DNA of 64,000 nt from a phage: the sequence record PX441839.1; one strand, written 5' to 3'. Position numbers and translations under genes: made by a program. This document shows positions 16,868 to 54,361 of this stretch, piece after piece (positions within the stretch are counted from its first letter, which is position 1; each line of letters begins with the position of its first letter). Below the pieces are notes generated by a model, which did not search any database, was not told where the DNA came from, and saw only the letters and a program-made list of their open reading frames with translations.

Positions 16868-17068
16868 CGTCTTCTCCCTTTTTAGTGTCGTGACTATTTT
16901 ATCATATTATGGTCCGATATAACACAAAGGGATTGACAAAAAGGTAATGTTATGAAAACTCCTAACAGATTTTTACAAAAACTGTTTAAAAGGTTAAAAT
17001 GCAGTTTATTACATAGAAAATGCCTATTAACAGGATCTGGTCAATAGGCATAACCGTTGAGTGAAATT

Positions 17069-17659
17069 TTATGCAAGTTCGAAATAGCGATCACGAGCCA
17101 TTGAGTATCTCGGTTCTGCGATCCCAGTTCCGTAGACGTACCACCTTCCAGTGGTGGAGATTCTCCCACCATACGAACCGAGTTCAAGGTCTCCATACAT
17201 CAAGTCAAAACCGATGTCAGTGTCAATAACCTTTAATCGACCATCATTCAGTCCCAGTTGGTTGTAAAACAAATCTTTAGCCATGAAAGCCCACTCACAG
17301 GCTTCCATCTCTGCACTATCCTTGTCGTTTGTTCTTGCATAGGCAAATAGCTCCAACTTCAAGAAAATACTGTAATGAGTGTTGTCGCTCTCGCTTCGGA
17401 AGCAAGGCGTCAAAGCCATCAGCATCTCACCTGGGAATACCTCTCCGTCAATGTCCATCTGTAAGAAAGATTGTTCCGCAGATGCGACAAAGTAAGTTTC
17501 GTCGTGGTGTTTGTACCTAAAGTCAACACCTTCGACGGGTGCGGTATGTGACATCGCCTTATCACTCACACACATTGGGACTCGACAAGGGTCAAATCCC
17601 TTTTTCTTCCAATACTCTGTTGCCCATAAGATTGAATTCATACTTATTGAATGTTTCAT
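17069..17659 (-). CDS. hypothetical enzyme with class-II aaRS-like motifs (196 aa)
   Basis: CFRSE...F resembles class II motif 2 (fRxE) and YGTGIAEPR resembles motif 3 (GxGxGxxR); first gene of a translationally coupled three-gene unit. Confidence 0.5.
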   Translation of the reverse strand: MKHSISMNSILWATEYWKKKGFDPCRVPMCVSDKAMSHTAPVEGVDFRYKHHDETYFVASAEQSFLQMDIDGEVFPGEMLMALTPCFRSESDNTHYSIFLKLELFAYARTNDKDSAEMEACEWAFMAKDLFYNQLGLNDGRLKVIDTDIGFDLMYGDLELGSYGGRISTTGRWYVYGTGIAEPRYSMARDRYFELA

Positions 17660-18201
17660 TATTTCCTAGCTCCGCTCTCAAATGCCCTTTTTGTTACCTT
17701 TGCCATAGCTTCGAGGTCTTCCATTGTCACTGTTGGGTGATTTTTCTCAAGGTATCCCTTTATTGCCCCAATAATGTCACTAAGTTCTTGCAGGGCCATC
17801 AGTTTGACACCTTGTTTCTCAGCATCCATGAATTCCTGCACCTCTTCCATCACTTTCCCTGAGGTCCCGTATGCATGTTTTTCTATATCTACAAGGTGGT
17901 AGCCTGGTGACTTTTTACTTGGACTTACCTTATCTCTTACTTTTACCCAAAACACCCCATTTCGAGTGTCGGTGCTAACAACTGTTCGGATGTAGATCCA
18001 TTCCCCAAGCTCCTCCTTCACTTTGAATCTGTGCCCTGGTTCAATGGTATCCATATCGATAATCTCATCGTGACTAATTTCATCAATGACCGACACAAGT
18101 ACGTTGGGAAGCAGTTTGCATTCATTTTCCATCAGCGATGCTGAAAGCATCACCTCCAGGGCACTCATTTCCATACCTATCTCCTCTTTTAATTTTTCCA
18201 A
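17659..18201 (-). CDS. MazG-like all-alpha NTP pyrophosphohydrolase domain protein (180 aa)
   Basis: C-terminal EEVQEFMDAEKQG ... LQELSDIIGAI matches the MazG acidic helical pattern; start overlaps the downstream gene. Confidence 0.45.
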   Translation of the reverse strand: MEKLKEEIGMEMSALEVMLSASLMENECKLLPNVLVSVIDEISHDEIIDMDTIEPGHRFKVKEELGEWIYIRTVVSTDTRNGVFWVKVRDKVSPSKKSPGYHLVDIEKHAYGTSGKVMEEVQEFMDAEKQGVKLMALQELSDIIGAIKGYLEKNHPTVTMEDLEAMAKVTKRAFESGARK

Positions 18202-19304
18202 GCCATATCTTGAACCTTAAGAATAACTTCTTCTGCTAACTTCTTGTCTGAATTATACGGCAACGAAGTAGACTTGTAAAGGACATTTCGAACGTACTCG
18301 TCCTTTCCCTCTGCCCACTCAAGAATCTCATCGAGAGTCTTCGATCCATTTCGGATTGCCAATAATTCATCAGCATCTTCACGGAACACATTGACTTCCC
18401 CTGTTGTGAGGATCTCTTCCGCCATTCGCATCAGGCGAACAAGGTGCATAGCGTGTTTTGTGTCGTAACCGAATTTAACCTCCAATTCATGGCGTGTGGC
18501 ATTACGGTTTTTCTTCCAATTCCAATAGTTCTTGTGCTTTTCTTTTGCCTGTTTGTGTTCTTCCCGCATGTACTTAACAAAGAACAGCGGAGGCTGGCGC
18601 TTAATACTGTCTGGGATCTCTTCATACACAACCTTCCTGATAGAACCATCTGGATTGAACATAGGTGGAACATTGTCCCGATGGTCAGGAACAACAGCAA
18701 AATGATCTGCACCAAGTGGAATCATTGAACAAACCCCAACCATGTTATTCAGTTTCCTCATGAAGTCCTCGTGCTTGAGCACAGGAACAGACAAATAACT
18801 TTGCACAAGTCTGAAAAACTCCAACTGACTTGGTGCTTTTTCTGGTTGCGGGTTGTTAATCCACTTATCGTGACCTCGGATACGCTTAAGTTGGCTCATT
18901 GCATACCCGCTAAATCTGTGCGCCACGTTGGAATTCAAAAAGGTATGAGCATTGTCCCGAAGAATATCAAATTCCGGCGTTCTGTACAGGATCTCTTGGT
19001 CCCTAGTGAATAGGGTCTCAATGATGTTTGGGTTCATATCCAGAAACAAACTCATGAACGTATTCAATTCATAAACTTTACCATCCTCTGCTCCAGGGAT
19101 GTTTAGTTCAGTTACCTTCTTGAAGGGTGTCCGCACAACACCCGGTTTTGCAACAAAGATACCTCGGATATCTGTATCACTCGTCGGAAGAGATGTACCG
19201 TAAGCCTTCGATCCTGACAAGTTTAGCATGACCACTTTTGAAACGTCTGGATGCTTTTCCAGACTTGCTACCATACTTAATACCTCTCCATTCGGAACAC
19301 ACAT
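18189..19304 (-). CDS. Pol-beta-superfamily nucleotidyltransferase (about 371 aa)
   Basis: hG[GS] ... [DE]h[DE]h signature LSGSKAYGTSLPTSDTDIRGIF; ATG at 19304 preceded by GGAGGAGG RBS. Confidence 0.6.
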   Translation of the reverse strand: MCVPNGEVLSMVASLEKHPDVSKVVMLNLSGSKAYGTSLPTSDTDIRGIFVAKPGVVRTPFKKVTELNIPGAEDGKVYELNTFMSLFLDMNPNIIETLFTRDQEILYRTPEFDILRDNAHTFLNSNVAHRFSGYAMSQLKRIRGHDKWINNPQPEKAPSQLEFFRLVQSYLSVPVLKHEDFMRKLNNMVGVCSMIPLGADHFAVVPDHRDNVPPMFNPDGSIRKVVYEEIPDSIKRQPPLFFVKYMREEHKQAKEKHKNYWNWKKNRNATRHELEVKFGYDTKHAMHLVRLMRMAEEILTTGEVNVFREDADELLAIRNGSKTLDEILEWAEGKDEYVRNVLYKSTSLPYNSDKKLAEEVILKVQDMAWKN

Positions 19305-19400
19305 GTTTACCTCCTCCAATTCGACCATCGTATAAATCACAGAGGCCACACCCTCTGCTTTTTAATTTTTTATAGTTAGAACAGTTCTCGCAACTACGTG

Positions 19401-19766
19401 TCACCATAGGAAGTTGACACCATAAGAAATCAAGAGGATCAACATTGTAAAGCTGTATGCCAGGCTGTACAGAACTGTACCTACAGTTGAGTCTGGACTA
19501 CGTTGAGTAGCCATCACCTTAATCCAATGGTACACTGCACTTGACCAGTGGAGTACAACGATTGATGTCCCCAGTACAAAAGGTGCGGCACTATACAAAC
19601 TGTAGCTTAACCACATACCAAAAGCGCAGAACAGCGTCAGGATGAAAATTGCACCCGGTTTCATGTGTTTCCCAAACCCAGGTCCTGACTTACCTCCTAA
19701 CAGACAGGTTATGACACCAAGAAAAGACAGAGAGTTTAGAACCAAGAGTACATAAAATTGCCACAT
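19401..19766 (-). CDS. integral membrane protein (121 aa)
   Basis: Three to four hydrophobic helices. Confidence 0.5.
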   Translation of the reverse strand: MWQFYVLLVLNSLSFLGVITCLLGGKSGPGFGKHMKPGAIFILTLFCAFGMWLSYSLYSAAPFVLGTSIVVLHWSSAVYHWIKVMATQRSPDSTVGTVLYSLAYSFTMLILLISYGVNFLW

Positions 19767-20164
19767 TATAATTTCTCCTCATAAATATCAGTGATGAGGT
19801 CAGAGACCTCGAAAGACTCTAACTCTTCGACGTTGATCAGGCGCTTCAAGCGCTCAATAACGAAGTCCTTCTTCACAAACACATCGGACAAGTGAGCTAT
19901 GTCCTGCTTTCCACGAAGTCCACTCACCAACTGCTTGTACCGAATGTGTTCACTATACTCTTCCCTGTTCATGGTTGTCAACCGTTTATTGTCGGAAACT
20001 TTCAAAAATACCTTTCCACTGTCCCAGTCGAACCCATTGCTAATTCCGTCAACGCCTATGGTTGGTAATGCCCCGATTGTAATGTGTCCAACCTCAACAG
20101 GGATCACCACGTCGGCATCTGGATCACATTGCCACAGTAAATCTATAAGTTCACTTACCTTCAT
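19766..20164 (-). CDS. hypothetical protein (132 aa)
   Basis: Six-frame ORF abutting neighbours. Confidence 0.5.
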   Translation of the reverse strand: MKVSELIDLLWQCDPDADVVIPVEVGHITIGALPTIGVDGISNGFDWDSGKVFLKVSDNKRLTTMNREEYSEHIRYKQLVSGLRGKQDIAHLSDVFVKKDFVIERLKRLINVEELESFEVSDLITDIYEEKL

Positions 20165-20468
20165 TCAATTTCTCCAAAACAAAACCAACCAGTAGGTCAA
20201 TGATGGCGATAAATGCTGCTACAGTTCCCACTGCAATCAGGAACGGCAGTAGTGTAAGTATGGGTCCTGACATGAACCCTGCAAATGCCCCGATAAAAGA
20301 TCCAACTATCGCCATTTCGTATTTTCGAGACTTAGCTATCCCTTTTGTTACTCGGTGCAGAACAAATATCCAAATAACGATACCCATTGTTAACCACACA
20401 GGTGGGTACATTGCGTAGCTCTCTGCCCAAACACTGGCGACTTTTAAAAATTCCATCATATCACTCAC
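20151..20468 (-). CDS. integral membrane protein (105 aa)
   Basis: Multiple hydrophobic helices. Confidence 0.5.
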   Translation of the reverse strand: MSDMMEFLKVASVWAESYAMYPPVWLTMGIVIWIFVLHRVTKGIAKSRKYEMAIVGSFIGAFAGFMSGPILTLLPFLIAVGTVAAFIAIIDLLVGFVLEKLNEGK

Positions 20469-20937
20469 CCTTTAAGCGAAGCTTTTTAATATTCACCAAA
20501 AGCTCTCGCTCACCCTCTGTAAAGTAACGGGTATCCCCATCTTCCGTGAGGTATGTAAATGGGGCATTACCCTCCTCGTCAAGTTTAGAGGAATACATAT
20601 ACTCTGGCAGTACAATACAGGCCGCAGTTAATGCACCATTCAAAGCATCCTCTGTTTCCTGGAAAAAGGAAGATGGCAGGTGCTTGTTCTTGTCGAAGAT
20701 GTCGATAAGGTCGAATATCTTCTGCTGATAACCACCATTAAGTACGATGATTGTCTTATCTGTGGATGCCCACTGTTTTGCCATCCTCACAGCAGCATGG
20801 CCTTGGTTTACCGCAGAGTTGTACTTATGCATAAGTTCAACAATGGCGTGAGCAGACTGAATACCTGCATGGATACCTGCGATATACTGATTAACAACAC
20901 AATACATACGGGTTGACATATTTCTCTCCTTAATCAT
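20461..20937 (-). CDS. putative peptidyl-tRNA hydrolase, PTH2-like (158 aa)
   Basis: MYCVVNQYIAGIHAGIQSAHAIVEL and QW...KTIIVL follow the PTH2 pattern (M.LVVR...G.AAQ.SHA / W...K.VV); sits directly before the CCA enzyme. Confidence 0.45.
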   Translation of the reverse strand: MIKERNMSTRMYCVVNQYIAGIHAGIQSAHAIVELMHKYNSAVNQGHAAVRMAKQWASTDKTIIVLNGGYQQKIFDLIDIFDKNKHLPSSFFQETEDALNGALTAACIVLPEYMYSSKLDEEGNAPFTYLTEDGDTRYFTEGERELLVNIKKLRLKGE

Positions 20938-22243
20938 TTAACCATTTTGGTGTATATGCGTATTGCAAATTACGAATATTCTTTTCTGTAATATCTGACT
21001 TAGCTTTTAGGATACCTCTTGCAACATAGCCTACTTTCAGACTCTTTACCTTTTGCTGGATAACCTCTGGTCGTCCTTTGAACTCCTCTGCGATCTCTCT
21101 GCTCTTTTTAGATATCTCTGACCTGTTTCTTACCAACTCCGCAACAGCACCGAGCAAGATATAAGGTTGATCATAGGCATCGTGAATTTTTGTAGGCCCT
21201 CGTCCACGAGCATCGCAAATACACGCCTCTACAAATTTCATTATAAACTCTTGGTCTTTCTCACCTCTCAACCGAGAAATTAAATCATATACCTTTTTCG
21301 GCCTCATGTCCAACACCCTGTGAAGTCGGGTATGATCGTCACATACCCTCCAAGCAAGGTCCATCCATTTGTTTGGAACTCCGAACCTGTCTCCCAACGA
21401 TTTTACGTAACCAAGTCCCTCAAACTCATGACCTCGTAGATGACCATGATCCCAGTACATAACCTTTCCAAGATCGTGGCACAATACTGCCCATTTCACC
21501 TCCGGTGCTGACTTAAGCCCTTGTGCGTAGTCCAAGCAAAGAAGGGTGTGTACATAGGCATCTCCTTCTGGGTGGTGAGCCTCAGGTTGCTTAACCCCTT
21601 TAAGATTATTTACCTCTGGCATTTCTCCAAGTTCGCACAAGGTGTCTATCATTATTGACGGTTTGTTCAAAGAAGATTGGTCTTCAAAACACTTACGGAT
21701 CTCCGCCATTTTTCTTTCTTTTGGGAGAGCCGCAAGGTTTTCCTTTGCTCGGTGTGCCAAAAGAACAGTGCTTGCTGCAACTTGGAAAGTTCCACCGTAC
21801 CTGGCGAACAATCTTGCCAGTCGGTAAATTCGCAAAGGGTCATCTCGTAATGTGTCACGGGAGACATGTCTAAGGACTTTCCTTTCTATGTCCTTTGCCC
21901 CATTAAAAGGATCAACATATTCTCCGGTTTCCAAATCTTTTGCAATCGCATTTATAGTAAGATCTCGTCTCTTTAAGTCTTCTTCGATTGTTACATCTGG
22001 GCTGAAAACTACCTCAAAATCATGGTATCCTGCTCCAGTTGATCGTTCGGTACGTGCCAAGGCGTACTCTTCCTTGGTTTCTGGGTGAAGATAAACAGGG
22101 AATGCAGCACCAACTTGCTCAAACCCCATTTCAATCATGTCCTCGTGGGTATATCCAACACAAACATAATCCTTATCTTTTGGCTCCAGACCCATCAGTT
22201 CGTCACGGACGGCACCTCCAACCAAGTAGATCTTCTTATTCAC
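20930..22243 (-). CDS. cca: tRNA nucleotidyltransferase (CCA-adding enzyme) with HD domain
   Basis: N-terminal LVGGAVRDELMG ... DKDYV head-domain motifs and a C-terminal HD-type region; 437 aa. Confidence 0.8.
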   Translation of the reverse strand: MNKKIYLVGGAVRDELMGLEPKDKDYVCVGYTHEDMIEMGFEQVGAAFPVYLHPETKEEYALARTERSTGAGYHDFEVVFSPDVTIEEDLKRRDLTINAIAKDLETGEYVDPFNGAKDIERKVLRHVSRDTLRDDPLRIYRLARLFARYGGTFQVAASTVLLAHRAKENLAALPKERKMAEIRKCFEDQSSLNKPSIMIDTLCELGEMPEVNNLKGVKQPEAHHPEGDAYVHTLLCLDYAQGLKSAPEVKWAVLCHDLGKVMYWDHGHLRGHEFEGLGYVKSLGDRFGVPNKWMDLAWRVCDDHTRLHRVLDMRPKKVYDLISRLRGEKDQEFIMKFVEACICDARGRGPTKIHDAYDQPYILLGAVAELVRNRSEISKKSREIAEEFKGRPEVIQQKVKSLKVGYVARGILKAKSDITEKNIRNLQYAYTPKWLND

Positions 22244-23031: not shown

Positions 23032-23059
23032 ATTATACACAGTATCATTTTGTTTGCAA
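23032..23059 (-). promoter_or_regulatory. sigma70-type promoter with extended -10 (minus strand)
   Basis: Reverse complement reads TTGCAA, 16 bp, TG-TATAAT. Confidence 0.5.
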
Positions 23060-23065
23060 CAACAA

Positions 23066-23088
23066 AAAGGCCACCCGAAGGTGGCCTA
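23066..23088 (-). terminator. rho-independent terminator after the methyltransferase gene
   Basis: ggccaccttcgggtggcc followed by a T-run on the minus strand. Confidence 0.55.
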
Positions 23089-23091
23089 ATG

Positions 23092-23607
23092 TTAACTTTT
23101 TGGTTTTGCCCAGTAAAACGGCGATTCAAGCTCCAGTCTTCCTTTTGGGTCCCAGATAAAGTAGCAATACTCAGCACCATCTGTTTTTCCATCATCTGTA
23201 AAAGATGGACGCTTAGAGAGGGTGATTAAGTGGTCAACTGGGTATTCTCCCCAGAAGTCGAACCGCTTCATGCTTCCAAGAAACCCTGCTCGAAGGAGCA
23301 TTATAACAACATCTGCATCTTTGTGGGCCTTCTCTACAAACTCCTGAGCCAAAGAATACGGAGGGTTTGTTATGATACAATCCACACGATTATACTCTGT
23401 GGTGAGATAATCCACACCTTCCCTGATCTCTCCCCACGCAGATCCTATCGGCATGTGGTTATAAAAACGCCCAGAGGCACGACACGGTTCCATGTATGTC
23501 CAATCTTTTCTGATAGGTACGATACTCAAGAGTGCATCAACTGCCCACTCAGGGGTCTCATACAAATCAAAAGCTTTTCGTTCCCCTTTTGGCTTCAATG
23601 CGGCCAT
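23092..23607 (-). CDS. DNA methyltransferase, probably N6-adenine (NPPY motif)
   Basis: DCIITNPPYS motif IV; 171 aa. Confidence 0.7.
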   Translation of the reverse strand: MAALKPKGERKAFDLYETPEWAVDALLSIVPIRKDWTYMEPCRASGRFYNHMPIGSAWGEIREGVDYLTTEYNRVDCIITNPPYSLAQEFVEKAHKDADVVIMLLRAGFLGSMKRFDFWGEYPVDHLITLSKRPSFTDDGKTDGAEYCYFIWDPKGRLELESPFYWAKPKS

Positions 23608-24467
23608 TACACCTTCTCCTTCAAACGCCGCACAATTTCTTGACGGATATACTCAGGACTATCATGGATAGACAGATAATTTATATCAAAAGCTTTTGCA
23701 ATCTCAATAAGCTCACTGGGCGTATACTCATCAAAATCTTTTGTGCTTAGTTTACCAAGAGAAAAGGTCTTCTTCTTTCCGTTATCCAAAGTTATGTCGA
23801 ACTCATCTCCTTTGTCAATCTCTTGAGTTGGGAATGGGAAAATTATGCTATCCGAAGCTTTAACTTCCTTTTTGCCATCCCCTAGTCGCGATCTGGCATC
23901 CTCTGCATTGAGATATACCTCACCCGCATGATCAAACAGTCGGCTCAACTCCTCGTCTGTCAGAATTTCAGAGTACAAATCATGAAATTGATTCTTGAAC
24001 TCCCGTGCATAAAAATCAACACGGGTTTTGATATTCGCAGAATCACCGCCCAGAGATAGTTGTGCATTGTGGAACATCAGATAGCAACCATCCTCAATCA
24101 CCCGCTCATGACCACTAAGGAAAATATTCACCGCTGCACTGGCAACCTCACCCACAGCAACAGTTTTCACCTTGGCCTTGCTTGCCTTGATCGCAGAGGT
24201 GTACATACTTGCGATAGAAAGGTATCCACCAGGGGAGGTGATATAAATTGTAATTGTGTCATGCTCACCTGCGTTACGGATCAGGTCCACAGGTTCAATA
24301 TGATTGGCTGGGTGGTCCCCAAGCTCTGTTAAGTGAATGCGCCAATCGTGGCGCTCCTTGGAACGAGACCAAATCATCTTTACATTTTCCGGCAGTAACT
24401 GATCACCCATTATCAAACCCCCTTCTCTAAGTCTTCCCGAATCCGCTGTGCGTTTTGAAGAATCCAC
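23607..24467 (-). CDS. ClpP-like serine protease (S14 family) with N- and C-terminal extensions
   Basis: ITSPGG ... GEVASAA ... MFHNAQ resembles the ClpP INSPGG / GxAAS / MIHQP core; 286 aa. Confidence 0.5.
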   Translation of the reverse strand: MDSSKRTADSGRLREGGLIMGDQLLPENVKMIWSRSKERHDWRIHLTELGDHPANHIEPVDLIRNAGEHDTITIYITSPGGYLSIASMYTSAIKASKAKVKTVAVGEVASAAVNIFLSGHERVIEDGCYLMFHNAQLSLGGDSANIKTRVDFYAREFKNQFHDLYSEILTDEELSRLFDHAGEVYLNAEDARSRLGDGKKEVKASDSIIFPFPTQEIDKGDEFDITLDNGKKKTFSLGKLSTKDFDEYTPSELIEIAKAFDINYLSIHDSPEYIRQEIVRRLKEKV

Positions 24468-42955: not shown

Positions 42956-43429
42956 TCAACGATCTTCGTAAACTTTCTTAGCTTCATCTCTCCGCAAGCT
43001 GTTACGGGAATCCCTCAATGCCTCCTTTTTCTTCTGCTCATCCTTCATACGGGCACTCACTATACTTCGAACGGTGTAACCGACAAGCTTTTCCTCTGTC
43101 CCATTCATCCAGTCGAGATCACCAACAAATATGAAGCTATCATCCCACCAATGTTGAATCCAAGTGTATTTCCCAGTTACAGGGTCGTACAAGGTGAAGT
43201 CGGTATAGCAACGACTATCTTCTTCAATCTTAACCTGGTCTTCATCACCCTGTTTGCAGTAAAAACCATCATGGATCTCGATACTACCACTCTTCACCAA
43301 TTTCACAATCTTTTTTGTAGGCTCCTTTATCTGTAACCAATCGTGGAACCATGCCATCCCACAAAACAAGCTGAACAATACAAAAACGAAAACCAGAAAC
43401 GGATCAGACATTATCATTCTCCTCTGCAA
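42956..43429 (-). CDS. membrane-anchored protein (157 aa)
   Basis: N-terminal transmembrane helix. Confidence 0.5.
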   Translation of the reverse strand: MQRRMIMSDPFLVFVFVLFSLFCGMAWFHDWLQIKEPTKKIVKLVKSGSIEIHDGFYCKQGDEDQVKIEEDSRCYTDFTLYDPVTGKYTWIQHWWDDSFIFVGDLDWMNGTEEKLVGYTVRSIVSARMKDEQKKKEALRDSRNSLRRDEAKKVYEDR

Positions 43430-44822
43430 TAGTCATTAACAGGTCGAGTAAAGAGTCAGAGGCTGCGATAATCTCAGGAAGAGAGTTTGCCTGGCTCTTG
43501 TCTCTACGGATCTCTACAAACTTATAGTTCAGTCGAGGAAGGAACAGTGATGCAAGCTCCTTGGTCTCAGACTTCGTAATGTCGTTAGCCTTTCCTGTTA
43601 CAATCTGCCCAATAAAATATTCCCGAGGTTTCTTACGCAGCGCGTCTGTCAAACCGGAGCCAATACCAACCTCTAAAAGTCCATCACGGGATCGGCAAAT
43701 AAGAGCACCGACCAAGTTGGGGTTCTTCTTGTGTGGAATAACATCAACAACTTCGACCTCAAAATCAAACTCATTCTTAAGTTTGATCCCTTTCTTTGTC
43801 TTATTGTCTCCCCAAGGCATAGCTGCCTCTTTGATAACAGTACCTTCTTTCTTCTGCTTACGCATCTCCACAAAGTGTTCGATGGCTTCCCGCATATTGC
43901 TAATGCGACGTCCAGTGATCATCCTGAAATTATCAGGATTGCCAACACTGTTCACAACAATATGGGCAACCAGTCGGCGGTCTTCATAACGAGCTTTGCT
44001 CTTTCTGGCGACATACTCGTCCATGTCTACGCAATCCCAAACCACCAGGCGAACAAGTGCAGGATCGATACTCTCAGGATCTTGGTTAAGGTATCCATTT
44101 CCGATCTCCCGTGGTTGTACTCCGTTAGGATATGAATTGTCGATAACCAAGGCTTCTCCATGAAGAACATAAGGTCCATTCTCACGGGCCTTAAACTTAA
44201 GGCCATTCTCCACGTCAGGTACGCACCGGAAATTTAATTCCTTGCCAGATCGTGATCGATAAATCACCTGTTCAGGCCACACCATAATGTCCGCATACAA
44301 CCCATCCATTTTCTCATCTGAAAATGCACCATCGTAGTTAAACTTACGAAGCAGATCTGGTTTGAATAGCGTGTAGCTTTGATAAGGTGGCTCAGTAATA
44401 AGGTCCTTCCAAACCTTGTTTGTAAGCGTTGTCTGGATACCACACTCAAGATCACGGTTAATAACCTTTACCAGGGTCTCAGGTTCTTCGCATAAACCAA
44501 CCAACTGATCCATGTATGCCTTAGCATCATCTCCGGTATACCGACGACACGCAATGTTGTCAATTAAGTCCTTAATCGAGTCGATCAATGGTCGATTACC
44601 ACAAACCCCGTTTGATGAACAGACACTCTTGAAATTCCGAACAAAAAAGTTCAACTCTTTCGAGTAGGCTACACGAAAAACTTCACGAAGTACATCGTTG
44701 TCTTCATTCTCACGAAGAATGGCCTCTTTCTCTTTTGTAGATCGGGTGTTGGACAGCTTGTTTAAAATTTCAGTTACAGTCATTCGTATCTCCTTTTGGT
44801 GGAATATTGCCGCTGTTGTCAA
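43404..44822 (-). CDS. ATP-dependent DNA ligase (an RNA ligase is not excluded)
   Basis: 472 aa; KMDGLY (motif I KxDG), EGTVIK (motif IV) and a lysine-rich motif V region. Confidence 0.55.
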   Translation of the reverse strand: MTTAAIFHQKEIRMTVTEILNKLSNTRSTKEKEAILRENEDNDVLREVFRVAYSKELNFFVRNFKSVCSSNGVCGNRPLIDSIKDLIDNIACRRYTGDDAKAYMDQLVGLCEEPETLVKVINRDLECGIQTTLTNKVWKDLITEPPYQSYTLFKPDLLRKFNYDGAFSDEKMDGLYADIMVWPEQVIYRSRSGKELNFRCVPDVENGLKFKARENGPYVLHGEALVIDNSYPNGVQPREIGNGYLNQDPESIDPALVRLVVWDCVDMDEYVARKSKARYEDRRLVAHIVVNSVGNPDNFRMITGRRISNMREAIEHFVEMRKQKKEGTVIKEAAMPWGDNKTKKGIKLKNEFDFEVEVVDVIPHKKNPNLVGALICRSRDGLLEVGIGSGLTDALRKKPREYFIGQIVTGKANDITKSETKELASLFLPRLNYKFVEIRRDKSQANSLPEIIAASDSLLDLLMTIAEENDNV

Positions 44823-52138: not shown

Positions 52139-52173
52139 TCTTAATACATAGCCCGTAAGGAATTGCGGGATTG

Positions 52174-52249
52174 CCGATTTAGCTCAGTTGGTAGAGCGCT
52201 TCACTTGTAATGATGATGTCGCAGGTTCGAGTCCTGCAATCGGCACCAG
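52174..52249 (+). tRNA. tRNA-Thr (anticodon UGU)
   Basis: Manual cloverleaf: acceptor gccgatt/aatcggc, D-arm gctc-agttggta-gagc, T-arm gcagg-ttcgagt-cctgc, CCA encoded; one U-U mismatch in the anticodon stem. Confidence 0.7.
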
Positions 52250-52254
52250 ATAAG

Positions 52255-52328
52255 GCCCAATAGCTCACTGGTGAGAGCCAACCCCTCATAAGGGTTAGGG
52301 CGGGGATCGTAACCCCGGTGGGCCACCA
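52255..52328 (+). tRNA. tRNA-Met (anticodon CAU; initiator, elongator or Ile-lysidine not distinguished)
   Basis: Acceptor ggcccaa/gtgggcc, anticodon arm aaccc-ctcataa-gggtt, CCA encoded. Confidence 0.75.
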
Positions 52329-52347
52329 ACCAAAGAGAGAATTTAGC

Positions 52348-52426
52348 GCGGGTGTATCTCATCCGTCTTCTAAACGGACGTTAACCGAGTAATTGGAGTA
52401 TGGGGGTTCGAATCCCTCCACCCGCG
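52348..52426 (+). tRNA. atypical tRNA-like gene with anticodon-type hairpin UCU (Arg?)
   Basis: Canonical T-arm ggggg-ttcgaat-ccctc and acceptor gcgggtg/cacccgc, but no D-arm, a 23-nt extra segment, no CCA, and the acceptor extends to a perfect 16-bp stem (52339-52354 / 52419-52434). Confidence 0.4.
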
Positions 52427-52450
52427 CTAAATTCTTTTGAGGTGTAAAAA

Positions 52451-52966
52451 TTGCTAAACTTGAAAAATCAAAATATAGATAAAGGCACGGGATATTTATA
52501 CGTGTACGATCCAAGTCACCCAATGGCAAATAAGTCTGGAAAGGTTTATGTTCACAGGTATGTTGCAGAGACGGGGTTTGGTATAAAACTAACACCTGAC
52601 CTGATAGTTCACCACAAGGATGAGAATAAGCTAAACAACGAGCTAACAAATCTCGAAGTTATGACTTATTCTGAACATGCCCGTCACCACCACGGGGCGG
52701 ATTTTGTAGAATGTGTATGCAAGACCTGTGGCAATGTAACTTTGAGGAGGCCCTCGGAAGTTGTATCATTTTGTTCACACAAGTGCTCAACAACATTCAG
52801 AAGGAAATTTGAAATCTCTCCTCAAGAGTTGCAGGATTTGGTTTGTAACTACCCAGTTAGTGTTATTGCAAAGATGTTTGGGGTTAGTGATACAGCAATA
52901 CACAAGAAATGTAAAACCCTAGGGATTAAAAAGATGCCGAAAGGATTCTTTTTAAGACTCCCTTGA
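52451..52966 (+). CDS. HNH homing endonuclease
   Basis: YVHRYVAE ... IVHHKDENKLNNELTNLEVMTYSEHARHH is a classic HNH motif; C-terminal Cys cluster and HTH-like region. Confidence 0.7.
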   Translation: MLNLKNQNIDKGTGYLYVYDPSHPMANKSGKVYVHRYVAETGFGIKLTPDLIVHHKDENKLNNELTNLEVMTYSEHARHHHGADFVECVCKTCGNVTLRRPSEVVSFCSHKCSTTFRRKFEISPQELQDLVCNYPVSVIAKMFGVSDTAIHKKCKTLGIKKMPKGFFLRLP

Positions 52967-52998
52967 CATAGGTAATTGATCCTGATAAGATAATTACA

Positions 52999-53397
52999 TT
53001 GTTTCATTTCGGGATCGACAATATGGCAAAAGCTGAGATCGTAACCCGTAAGCGTGGACGGCCTTCGAAAGAAGAAAGCACAGCCATTGCTACTGAAAAG
53101 GCAATTCTTGAATATCGCCTTAAAGTGGCGATGTTATTACCTACCGCTGTTGATACCCTTAAAGGTCTGTTAACGTCAGGCTCTGAAAAAGTTAAAGAGG
53201 GTACTGCAAAATTCCTGATCAATGAGGCTAAAGAGGTGTTTAACATCTACGTCGCAGAAGATAATCAGGACAGTGAAGCAGGTGGTACAGTATCTGCAAA
53301 CTCACAGACCCACGCTGGATCGTCTGATGAGATTAAAAACATTATGCCTCTTACTACGGAAATCCGTGAGTACAAGATGGCAGAAGGTGAAGATTAA
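52999..53397 (+). CDS. hypothetical protein with AT-hook-like RKRGRPSK (about 125-132 aa)
   Basis: Six-frame ORF; terminator follows. Confidence 0.45.
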   Translation: MFHFGIDNMAKAEIVTRKRGRPSKEESTAIATEKAILEYRLKVAMLLPTAVDTLKGLLTSGSEKVKEGTAKFLINEAKEVFNIYVAEDNQDSEAGGTVSANSQTHAGSSDEIKNIMPLTTEIREYKMAEGED

Positions 53398-53428
53398 GAC
53401 CCTTCGGGGTCTTTGAGTTTTCTTTTGA
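53398..53428 (+). terminator. rho-independent terminator
   Basis: gaccc-ttcg-gggtc followed by tttgagttttctttt. Confidence 0.5.
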
Positions 53429-53457
53429 CGATTATTTTCGTACAAAAGAGAATTTAA

Positions 53458-53544
53458 GCCAGGTTATACCGTAGGGGTAGCGGAGGAGACTGTAAATCTC
53501 TGGTCATTGCGACTCGGGTGGTTCGACGCCATCACCTGGCACCA
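53458..53544 (+). tRNA. tRNA-Tyr (anticodon GUA), type II
   Basis: Acceptor gccaggt/acctggc, anticodon arm ggaga-ctgtaaa-tctct, long variable arm, CCA encoded. Confidence 0.7.
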
Positions 53545-53549
53545 AATAT

Positions 53550-53639
53550 GGAGAGTTGGCAGAGCGGCTGAATGCACCTGACTTGAAATCAGGCGACCGT
53601 TAACTCGGTCCGTGGGTTCAAATCCTACGCTCTCCGCCA
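53550..53639 (+). tRNA. tRNA-Ser (anticodon UGA), type II
   Basis: Tracks E. coli tRNA-Ser: ggagagt-tg-gcagagcggctgaatgc ... cctga-cttgaaa-tcagg ... gtggg-ttcaaat-cctac ... gctctcc-g-cca. Confidence 0.85.
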
Positions 53640-53720
53640 AATATCGCCCCTTATATAAAAGAACACCTGCGCGGCTGGAAAAACCCACTCAACAGTTCTT
53701 GAAAAGGGGCAACAATTTAC

Positions 53721-53798
53721 GGATCATTAGCTACAATTGGTTAGAGCGGCTCACTGTTAATGAGACGGTTCGTGGTTCAAGTCCACGATGATCCGCCA
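53721..53798 (+). tRNA. tRNA-Asn (anticodon GUU)
   Basis: Acceptor ggatcat/atgatcc, anticodon loop ctgttaa, T-arm cgtgg-ttcaagt-ccacg, CCA encoded. Confidence 0.8.
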
Positions 53799-53805
53799 AA
53801 CAATA

Positions 53806-53950
53806 GAAGGGTAACTTAAAGGCGGGTGTCCTGCCACTGGCCTCCAAAACCAGTCGTAAGGGGTTAGATTCCTCACTCTTCTGCCAAGTCGGGGTGTGCG
53901 CCAAATAAGAGCGGGTTAGCAACTGTGTTGTAGATTAGTCTACCACCCCA
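53806..53950 (+). ncRNA. degenerate tRNA-like sequences / possible small stable RNAs within the tRNA cluster
   Basis: Hairpins actgg-cctccaaaa-ccagt and gtaga-ttag-tctac plus tRNA-like termini (agaaggg ... ctcttct-g-cca), but no canonical cloverleaf. Confidence 0.3.
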
Positions 53951-53960
53951 CACAATAAGA

Positions 53961-54036
53961 AGTCCTATAGTTTCAGCGGTTAAAATACTCGCCTGTCACG
54001 CGAGAGTCACGGGTTCGAATCCCGTTAGGACTGCCA
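53961..54036 (+). tRNA. tRNA-Asp (anticodon GUC)
   Basis: Acceptor agtccta/taggact, anticodon arm ctcgc-ctgtcac-gcgag, T-arm acggg-ttcgaat-cccgt, CCA encoded. Confidence 0.8.
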
Positions 54037-54043
54037 TTTCTGA

Positions 54044-54119
54044 TGGAGATTAGCTCAGTAGGTAGAGCAAGCGACCGATAATCGCTGGGTCACTGGTTCA
54101 AGTCCAGTATCTCCAACCA
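54044..54119 (+). tRNA. tRNA-Ile (anticodon GAU), with unusual C at position 33
   Basis: Acceptor tggagat/atctcca, D-arm gctc-agtaggta-gagc, anticodon arm agcga-ccgataa-tcgct, T-arm actgg-ttcaagt-ccagt, CCA encoded. Confidence 0.65.
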
Positions 54120-54124
54120 AATAC

Positions 54125-54201
54125 CTCCGTGTAGCTCAGTCTGGTAGAGCGATTGCTTTGGGAGCAATAGGTCCAACGTTCGAGTCGTTGTACGGAGACC
54201 A
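54125..54201 (+). tRNA. tRNA-Pro (anticodon UGG)
   Basis: Acceptor ctccgtg/tacggag, anticodon arm attgc-tttggga-gcaat, T-arm caacg-ttcgagt-cgttg, CCA encoded. Confidence 0.85.
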
Positions 54202-54204
54202 AAT

Positions 54205-54279
54205 TGGGGATTAGCCAAGCGGTAAGGCACGAGGCTTTGATCCTTGTATGCGGAGGTTCGAATCCTCCATCCCCAGCCA
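54205..54279 (+). tRNA. tRNA-Gln (anticodon UUG)
   Basis: Acceptor tggggat/atcccca, anticodon loop ctttgat, T-arm ggagg-ttcgaat-cctcc, CCA encoded. Confidence 0.8.
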
Positions 54280-54284
54280 AATAA

Positions 54285-54361
54285 GCGTCCTTAGTGTCAG
54301 TGGTCTAACACTCCATCCTTCCAAGTTGGAACCACGGGTTCGAATCCCGTAGGACGCTCCA
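54285..54361 (+). tRNA. tRNA-Gly (anticodon UCC)
   Basis: Acceptor gcgtcct/aggacgc, anticodon loop cttccaa, T-arm acggg-ttcgaat-cccgt, CCA encoded. Confidence 0.8.

Follow-up and report, generated by a model that had tools for sequence, protein, structure and literature searches.

The 64,000-nucleotide (nt) stretch of phage DNA examined here (record PX441839.1, hereafter the window) carries on its minus strand a gene for an HD-domain CCA-adding enzyme and, directly downstream of it, a gene for a small protein that has the fold of the PTH2-type peptidyl-tRNA hydrolases. The order of CCA enzyme, PTH2-like protein and RlaP-family nucleotidyltransferase recurs in several phage lineages, and in the window both RlaP and a minimal class II aminoacyl-tRNA synthetase (aaRS) core are encoded in the same gene block. 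Based on this gene order and on the presence of the latter two genes, it is fairly probable that the block keeps tRNA usable during infection and that the PTH2-like protein hydrolyses the ester of a peptide or N-blocked amino acid at the 3' adenosine of tRNA. The window belongs to a Vequintavirinae-type myophage with a genome of about 140-150 kb, which is not a jumbo phage; the region shows 83-93% nucleotide identity to Salmonella phage SSBI34 and is matched less strongly by Cronobacter CR3-like and related phages. The initial annotation of the window, made from the letters alone, had placed an HD-domain CCA-adding enzyme and a PTH2-like hydrolase in two adjacent open reading frames (ORFs) of the minus strand; both ORFs were found where it put them, both identities stood, and the start of the small gene was corrected.

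The modelled small protein, predicted as a monomer only, gives a strong fold match to PTH2: it has the alpha/beta fold of this family, a four-stranded sheet flanked by helices, and its secondary-structure elements follow one another in the PTH2 order. When the family alignment was compared by hhalign with five solved PTH2 sequences, an E value of 5e-4 was obtained. The 158-amino-acid (aa) ORF itself matches the Pfam PTH2 family (PF01981) weakly (E 4.3e-4, 20.9 bits), and 39 of 69 family members match PTH2 independently at E<=0.1, the best of them at 2.3e-5, with no other family recurring. The NCBIfam Pth2 equivalog model gave E 0.016 and 15.3 bits against its cutoff of 126 bits, and the Pfam and NCBIfam searches returned no match to Pth1. 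Identity to the archaeal and eukaryotic PTH2 proteins (PF01981; 1XTY, 1Q7S, 1WN2 and 2ZV3) is as low as 13-24%, and the second-best structural match is Atu0240, a PTH2-like protein of unknown function. The phage protein differs from PTH2 in an insertion of about 28 residues (approximately 112-140), which lies before the last helix and strand; this segment might be taken for a C-terminal extension but is better read as an insertion, after which the normal last helix and strand follow. The C-terminal 'RLKG' strand echoes the 'LKL' end of PTH2. Taking the fold match of the model, the sub-threshold Pfam matches and the hhalign result together, we regard the PTH2 fold of the predicted structure as established.

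The extent of the small gene required correction. Its longest ORF (20461..20937, minus strand, 158 aa) overlaps the CCA gene by 8 nt. A Shine-Dalgarno sequence, AAGGAG, can be read at 20926..20931 (minus strand), where it overlaps the TAA stop of the CCA gene, and the spacer between it and the ATG at 20919 is 6 nt. Homologues begin with MK(T/L)R(M/A)Y (MKTRMY...) at the position of this ATG, and the SSBI34 protein is annotated with 152 aa. These three features make ATG 20919 the probable start, from which a product of 152 aa is encoded by 20461..20919 (minus strand); it comprises the PTH2 core and the insertion. The 8-nt overlap was accordingly dropped in favour of the start preceded by the Shine-Dalgarno sequence, from which the two genes lie 10 nt apart without overlap.

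The upstream gene (20930..22243, minus strand) encodes a CCA-adding and repair enzyme of 437 aa, in which a class II nucleotidyltransferase head is joined to a C-terminal HD phosphohydrolase domain, as in E. coli Cca. Both domains are recognised by Pfam, the PolyA_pol head at 1.5e-19 and HD at 1.6e-5 (25.6 bits against a cutoff of 22), and the protein matches PHROG 2244 at 6e-132. It is 41% identical to E. coli K-12 Cca (b3056) over 403 residues (E 1e-85). The best NCBIfam match is PRK10885, 'multifunctional CCA addition/repair protein' (8e-109, residues 4-377), whose equivalog cutoff is not reached (364 versus 451 bits); by sequence the phage protein is thus a clear homologue of the PRK10885 enzymes, yet not an equivalog under the NCBIfam rule. 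The head motifs GGAVRD, KDxD (KDKD), the DxD carboxylates, RTER (ARTER) and EDLKRRD are all kept. The nucleotide-selection motif EDLKRRDLTINA is kept between the phage protein and E. coli Cca, and EEDLKRRDLTINA of the phage protein aligns with the EDxxR/RRD motif of solved CCA enzymes and of E. coli Cca. In the HD domain, HPEGD..HTL and LCHDLGK of the phage align with HPEID..HTL and LCHDLGK of E. coli, so that the HPExD and LCHDLGK motifs are intact. On the other hand, the phage enzyme differs from that of E. coli in a C-terminal tail of about 40 residues, in being virus-encoded, and in its placement within a block of repair genes. The records of related phages already label the homologue as a tRNA nucleotidyltransferase. 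Judged by these alignments, the 437-aa enzyme is a phage copy of the host-type (gammaproteobacterial) bifunctional Cca, and its closest similarity to Cca, rather than to PcnB or A-adding enzymes, suggests that it would carry out complete CCA addition.

The link of the PTH2-like protein to the tRNA 3' end is drawn from recurrent gene order. Eighty-three PTH2-like loci, each extended by at most 8 kb in both directions, were searched with iterated profiles. A CCA-type enzyme lies within 8 kb of the PTH2-like gene in 26 loci, always on the same strand; in 17 it lies at most 1.3 kb upstream, and six of these 17 pairs abut (<=13 nt) or overlap. RlaP is present in 21 loci. Both the CCA enzyme and RlaP are found in 15, and all but one of these (14/15) have the order of CCA enzyme, PTH2-like protein and RlaP. 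As the Vequintavirinae loci share ancestry, they count as one event. The linkage is even tighter in Barbavirus and in two other, metagenomic lineages (L021 and L022) than in Vequintavirinae. Barbavirus comprises 84.6-kb Rheinheimera phages unrelated to Vequintavirinae, and in Rheinheimera phage Barba31A (MK719750; locus L083, 2766..5416) the genes gp063, gp062 and gp061 are directly contiguous: gp063 encodes a tRNA nucleotidyltransferase, the PTH2-like gp062 shows a 4-nt overlap, and the RlaP gene gp061 follows 9 nt downstream. In most jumbo-phage loci the PTH2-like gene is not near a CCA enzyme. In general, the linkage is recurrent and not universal, and chance explains it less well than does a functional link at the tRNA 3' end.

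RlaP and the aaRS core complete this picture in the window. The RlaP-family (PF10127) Pol-beta nucleotidyltransferase of 386 aa (18189..19349, minus strand) matches Pfam RlaP at 5.4e-18 with 66 bits, above the gathering score of 23, and PHROG 388 at 1.1e-81; T4 NrdC.11 and Pseudomonas RlaP belong to the same group of nucleotidyltransferases. In bacteria, RlaP extends damaged RNA 3' ends by one or two nucleotides and contributes to restoring the aminoacylation of over-damaged tRNA (PMC12776372). The bacterial genes adjoin those of RNA ligases such as RtcB, whereas RlaP here has the CCA enzyme and the PTH2-like protein as its conserved neighbours. The last gene of the block (17069..17659, minus strand) encodes a protein of 196 aa that matches PHROG 4806 at 2.9e-51. 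Its AlphaFold2 (AF2) model has a pLDDT (predicted local distance difference test) of 94.7, and Foldseek matches it to the catalytic domains of PylRS and SerRS at E ~1e-10. Motif 2 (P85, C86 and R88) and motif 3 (G177, T178, G179 ... R184) are invariant or nearly so in its family, the motif arginines R88 and R184 being fully invariant. The catalytic core fills the whole model, and the protein has neither an anticodon-binding domain nor an N-terminal tRNA-recognition domain. On the strength of the model, the Foldseek matches and the invariant arginines, it is assigned as a minimal class II aaRS core. The family is present in 276 phage records, in which it carries the conflicting labels 'seryl-' or 'histidyl-tRNA synthetase'.

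The PTH2-like family is large. It comprises about 2,495 clusters at 50% identity (E<=1e-3), and homologues occur in 209 GenBank phage records; because of this wide occurrence, the CCA and PTH2-like genes are not chance ORFs. A pattern-limited scan of 185,579 prokaryotic species, one genome each, found three PTH2-like loci, all in metagenome-assembled genomes (MAGs), so the family appears to be essentially viral, a further difference from PTH2. Its members are usually labelled 'hydrolase' (PHROG 3668) or 'hypothetical protein'. An exception is gp174 of Klebsiella phage Muenster (RaK2 group), a match to the PTH2-like protein of the window at E 6e-9, for which the record gives 'putative peptidyl-tRNA hydrolase, HHpred 2ZV3_G 97%'. 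The RaK2 genome paper noted a Pth2 plus a CCA-adding enzyme (PMC3622015), and Iyer et al. 2021 treated PTH2, the CCA-adding enzyme and RlaP jointly as a jumbo-phage system for RNA repair and ribosome rescue (PMC7824862). The jumbo-phage proteins (RaK2 ORF188 and Muenster gp174) thus belong to the same sequence family as the protein of the window, and the same role beside a CCA-adding enzyme and RlaP has been proposed for them; they differ in that their genes usually do not adjoin the CCA enzyme and in that the matches span only residues ~3-115 of the protein studied here. In Muenster (L082, 2239..3435), the PTH2-like gene lies directly downstream of a gene for a NinI-like Ser/Thr phosphatase, not of a CCA enzyme, and the same succession is seen in related Yersinia, Erwinia and Pectobacterium jumbo phages. 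The reaction proposed for the phage protein, hydrolysis of the ester bond of peptidyl-tRNA, is that of the host's own enzyme, bacterial Pth1, which is unrelated to PTH2 in fold and sequence (PMC3488237, PMC11994314). Literature searches found no counter-defence role of a phage CCA enzyme, and a paper on Mom and tRNA was set aside as unrelated to the CCA/PTH2-like locus.

By aligning 252 diverse family sequences and mapping their positions to S. solfataricus Pth2 with hhalign and HMMER, the active site of the family may be compared with that of PTH2. The residues G25, Q27, H30, E94 and T104 are 100% conserved, and R10, Y12, N16, Y18, W56, K61, T62 and P111 are conserved in at least 97% of the sequences. 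Q27, H30, E94, G101 and T104 of the phage family correspond to Q22, H25, D86, G95 and T98 of S. solfataricus Pth2, respectively. Therefore, the Gln and His of helix 1 (AQxxHA in PTH2) are present as Q27 and H30, and the acidic residue after strand 3 is kept through a conservative change from Asp to Glu. Mutagenesis by Fromant and colleagues in 2005 reportedly implicates K18, D86 and T90 in S. solfataricus Pth2. Of these three mutationally defined positions, two depart from the canonical residue in the phage family, and the acidic one alone is kept, as Glu. The DAGxT of PTH2 is replaced by E-x-x-x-A-L-N-G, with the loss of Thr90, and the loop in this region is two residues shorter; the GKGK loop is replaced by G-I-(H/Q)-A-G; and the nearly invariant R10, Y12, N16 and Y18 are additional to the PTH2 pattern. 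Judged from these patterns, the phage family is genuinely homologous to PTH2 but divergent, and its active site is partly remodelled. It is likely that an ester is hydrolysed at the same pocket as in PTH2, and a peptidyl-tRNA hydrolase activity of the phage protein would be consistent with this.

Several observations weigh against the proposal that this protein acts on peptidyl-tRNA within a block that maintains tRNA. In the active site, position 23, which was equated with K18 through its spacing from Q27 and through the start of helix 1, is His in 164 of the 252 sequences (65%) and Gln in 85 (34%), and Lys is not among its four most frequent residues. The N-terminal region of the family, where the GKGK loop with Lys18 would be expected, fails to align to PTH2, and residue 97, which aligns with T90, varies among Asp, Glu, Ala and Lys. 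As the equivalents of Lys18 and Thr90 are not kept, the site has been remodelled and may accept a different substrate. At the level of sequence searches, the 20.9 bits of the PTH2-like protein fall below the Pfam gathering score of 23, and neither phmmer nor a profile of 69 family sequences retrieved a PTH2 from the Protein Data Bank (PDB) sequences, where chance matches alone were obtained; the PTH2 assignment therefore rests on the fold, the sub-threshold Pfam matches and hhalign. At the level of gene context, 57 of the 83 loci have no CCA enzyme within 8 kb, so the linkage is specific to certain lineages. When an RNA ligase, a polynucleotide kinase (PNK) and RtcB were looked for among the window ORFs of at least 150 aa, none was found, the sole ligase among these ORFs being a DNA ligase (43404..44822); a complete break-repair pathway is therefore not visible in the window. 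Promoter-like sites in the window are at chance level (20 found versus 19.2 expected in shuffled sequences), so co-transcription of the block is a supposition. Finally, literature searches found no experimentally characterised phage PTH2.

The divergence of the active site allows a different explanation, namely that the PTH2 fold serves another substrate or a non-catalytic role, such as the hydrolysis of another ester or the binding of tRNA or the ribosome, and that the gene stands next to the CCA gene because both are expressed as early or middle genes, not because their products share chemistry. The lack of conserved Lys18 and Thr90 equivalents, the family's own invariant residues absent from PTH2 (R10, Y12, N16 and Y18), the sub-threshold Pfam score and the place of Atu0240 among the structural matches are all in keeping with it. 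However, the complete conservation of Q27, H30, E94 and T104 argues for retained catalysis at the same site, and unrelated phages repeat the arrangement of the gene with two enzymes of tRNA/RNA 3' ends; for these reasons, we consider a different role unlikely. The tRNA maintenance kit suggested in the initial annotation is thus upheld in part: the domain identities, the recurrent gene order and the RlaP and aaRS neighbours support it, whereas two of the three catalytic positions of PTH2 are not kept. The evasion of host tRNA-targeting toxins or ribosome-stalling defences, to which that annotation tied the kit, would be a conjectural benefit. This idea is already in the literature (PMC7824862) and is not new.

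If the block acts in tRNA maintenance, the following steps may be envisaged. Once a tRNA end has been damaged, the HD domain of Cca would first remove 2',3'-cyclic or terminal phosphates, and the nucleotidyltransferase head would then rebuild a missing or truncated 3' CCA. The PTH2-like enzyme would hydrolyse the ester between the peptide or N-blocked amino acid and the 3' adenosine, which would free tRNA trapped as peptidyl- or N-acyl-aminoacyl-tRNA and leave its 3' end open to reuse or repair. RlaP would restore nucleotides lost from other broken RNA ends, and the minimal aaRS core may make aminoacyl-adenylate. For the phage, the possible benefit is either extra recycling of peptidyl-tRNA or counter-defence against toxins that act on charged tRNA or on the acceptor end, two benefits that sequence does not separate. 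The minigenes of the lambda bar region are toxic when host Pth is limiting.

The same chemistry may also be read more narrowly. The PTH2-like protein could be a dedicated 3'-end deblocking enzyme in counter-defence and not a general recycler of peptidyl-tRNA, stripping the aminoacyl or N-acetyl-aminoacyl groups left by host toxins directed at charged tRNA or at the acceptor end (e.g., GNAT toxins of the TacT/AtaT type), after which the adjacent Cca-HD enzyme and RlaP could rebuild the end. The tight and repeated adjacency to these two enzymes in several lineages, an active site remodelled relative to housekeeping PTH2, and the apparent restriction of the family to viruses, with three MAG loci among the 185,579 species genomes of the pattern-limited scan, all favour such a specialisation. 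In addition, host Pth detoxifies the acetylated aminoacyl-tRNA made by TacT (PMC9241777). However, neither a host toxin nor a defence system nor a phenotype is connected with the gene, and most family members do not lie beside a CCA enzyme; moreover, the chemistry is that of the explanation preferred here, the difference being in the physiological substrate only. A dedicated deblocking enzyme therefore seems rather improbable to us. An extension of it, with a similarly small chance of being right, is that the whole block forms a self-contained viral rescue pathway for the acceptor end, directed against acceptor-end toxins. In such a pathway, the remodelled PTH2-like enzyme would be a specialised deacylase that unblocks toxin-modified or stalled 3' ends, the HD domain of Cca would strip phosphates, the Cca head and RlaP would rebuild the end, and the aaRS core would re-activate the amino acid; a tRNA-like RNA that lacks a D arm and an encoded CCA, described below, might also be serviced. 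We know of no dedicated phage countermeasure against toxins that target the acceptor end.

The tRNA genes of the window bear on the purpose of the CCA enzyme. The initial annotation had counted 10-12 of them, one lacking CCA, which agrees with what was found. ARAGORN and Rfam identify 10 canonical tRNA genes (Thr, Met, Tyr, Ser, Asn, Asp, Ile, Pro, Gln and Gly) at 52173..54361 (plus strand), and reading of their 3' ends shows that all 10 ARAGORN tRNAs encode CCA. In addition, an atypical tRNA-like gene with a UCU anticodon and without encoded CCA lies at 52348..52426 (plus strand; Rfam tRNA, 38.4 bits). ARAGORN at default settings does not call it, and a model produced by relaxed ARAGORN was dropped for its implausible acceptor stem; the gene therefore rests on the Rfam match, its fold and covariation. 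It has a long acceptor stem with a 9-bp helix, a connector of about 7 nt in place of the D arm, the anticodon loop CUUCUAA, a long and near-invariant variable region, and a normal T arm, and its 3' tail reads G-CUA and not G-CCA. Phage records that contain the gene number 251, from Vequintavirinae, Felixounavirus, Kuravirus and other groups; most leave it unannotated, and comparison of five phages shows compensatory changes in its acceptor, anticodon and T stems. The copy in phage KB57 reads G-CCA, and copies also occur in coliphages of 68-77 kb (Kuravirus TH42 and Bas93).

It is plausible that the tRNA-like RNA is a client of the CCA enzyme. One could go further and suppose that the enzyme mainly matures phage tRNAs, the PTH2-like gene being functionally unrelated; the tRNA-like gene without encoded CCA would provide a substrate, and in T4 the Pro and Ser tRNA precursors need CCA addition by the host. 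However, since the tRNA-like gene is also present in the smaller coliphages and encodes CCA in KB57, it does not track the enzyme and is not the reason that this phage carries it. Moreover, the host already has Cca, and the intact HD domain and the conserved RlaP neighbour point to repair. A role mainly in maturation is therefore highly improbable and was rejected as the purpose of the enzyme: with CCA encoded in 10 of 10 canonical tRNAs and the HD domain intact, 3'-end repair is the better reading.

The block that contains these genes runs on the minus strand from about 23.0 kb to 17.07 kb (~6 kb), and its genes abut or overlap. Three small proteins of unknown function come first, and the CCA/HD enzyme and then the PTH2-like protein are next. 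A 132-aa protein flanked by two small membrane proteins separates these from RlaP, after which come a 180-aa protein and the 196-aa aaRS core. The first small predicted membrane protein (105 aa, 20151..20468, minus strand) matches the PHROG 11979 membrane protein at 3.3e-11, and its gene shares 8 nt with the 3' end of the PTH2-like gene; many Vequintavirinae (PVP-SE1 161/162, KpS8 and KB57) have 'hydrolase | membrane protein' as adjoining annotations. The 132-aa protein of unknown function (19766..20164, minus strand; PHROG 12566 at 5.9e-61) is conserved in the SSBI34 and CR3-like loci, and the second predicted membrane protein (121 aa, 19401..19766, minus strand) matches the PHROG 12739 membrane protein at 2e-10. 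The gene for the 180-aa protein (17659..18201, minus strand; PHROG 6408 at 1.8e-34) has a 13-nt overlap with that of RlaP and lies directly against the aaRS-like gene. The C-terminal ~80 residues of its product are weakly MazG/PRA-PH-like (Pfam PRA-PH, E 0.011, below threshold), and the protein co-occurs with RlaP and the 196-aa aaRS core in CR3-like phages and, in a jumbo phage of 368 kb, at locus L081.

Terminator-like hairpins are found only at the two ends of the block. One lies upstream at 23068..23087 (minus strand; consensus scan only) and is followed by a promoter-like site at 23059..23032 (minus strand), which on a consensus scan is a hint at most; the other, a 12-pair stem with a T run that is a consensus match only, lies just past the last gene at 17020..17051 (minus strand). 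This arrangement is consistent with co-transcription of the block. Just upstream are the genes for a small adenine DNA methyltransferase-like protein (23092..23607, minus strand; PHROG 799) and for a ClpP-like protease (23607..24467, minus strand; Pfam CLP_protease, 3e-11), whose order with the CCA gene is kept in all Vequintavirinae loci examined.

Earlier work has already treated phage PTH2, CCA enzymes and RlaP as a group, and a PTH2 annotation is already attached to homologues of the small protein, so the gain made here is incremental: it consists of the recurrence of the three-gene cassette, the lack of conservation of the catalytic lysine, and the minimal aaRS core and tRNA-like RNA found in association. 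tRNA is often put out of action by bacterial defences and toxins, and phages respond with spare tRNAs and repair enzymes. The combination of a PTH2-fold protein, a CCA/HD enzyme and RlaP implies that some phages may both unblock and rebuild the tRNA 3' end, a capacity that has been little studied experimentally. A test of activity would reveal if a PTH2 active site can function in the absence of the canonical lysine; and as the family is large (~2,500 clusters), apparently virus-restricted and biochemically untouched, one assay would annotate thousands of genes.

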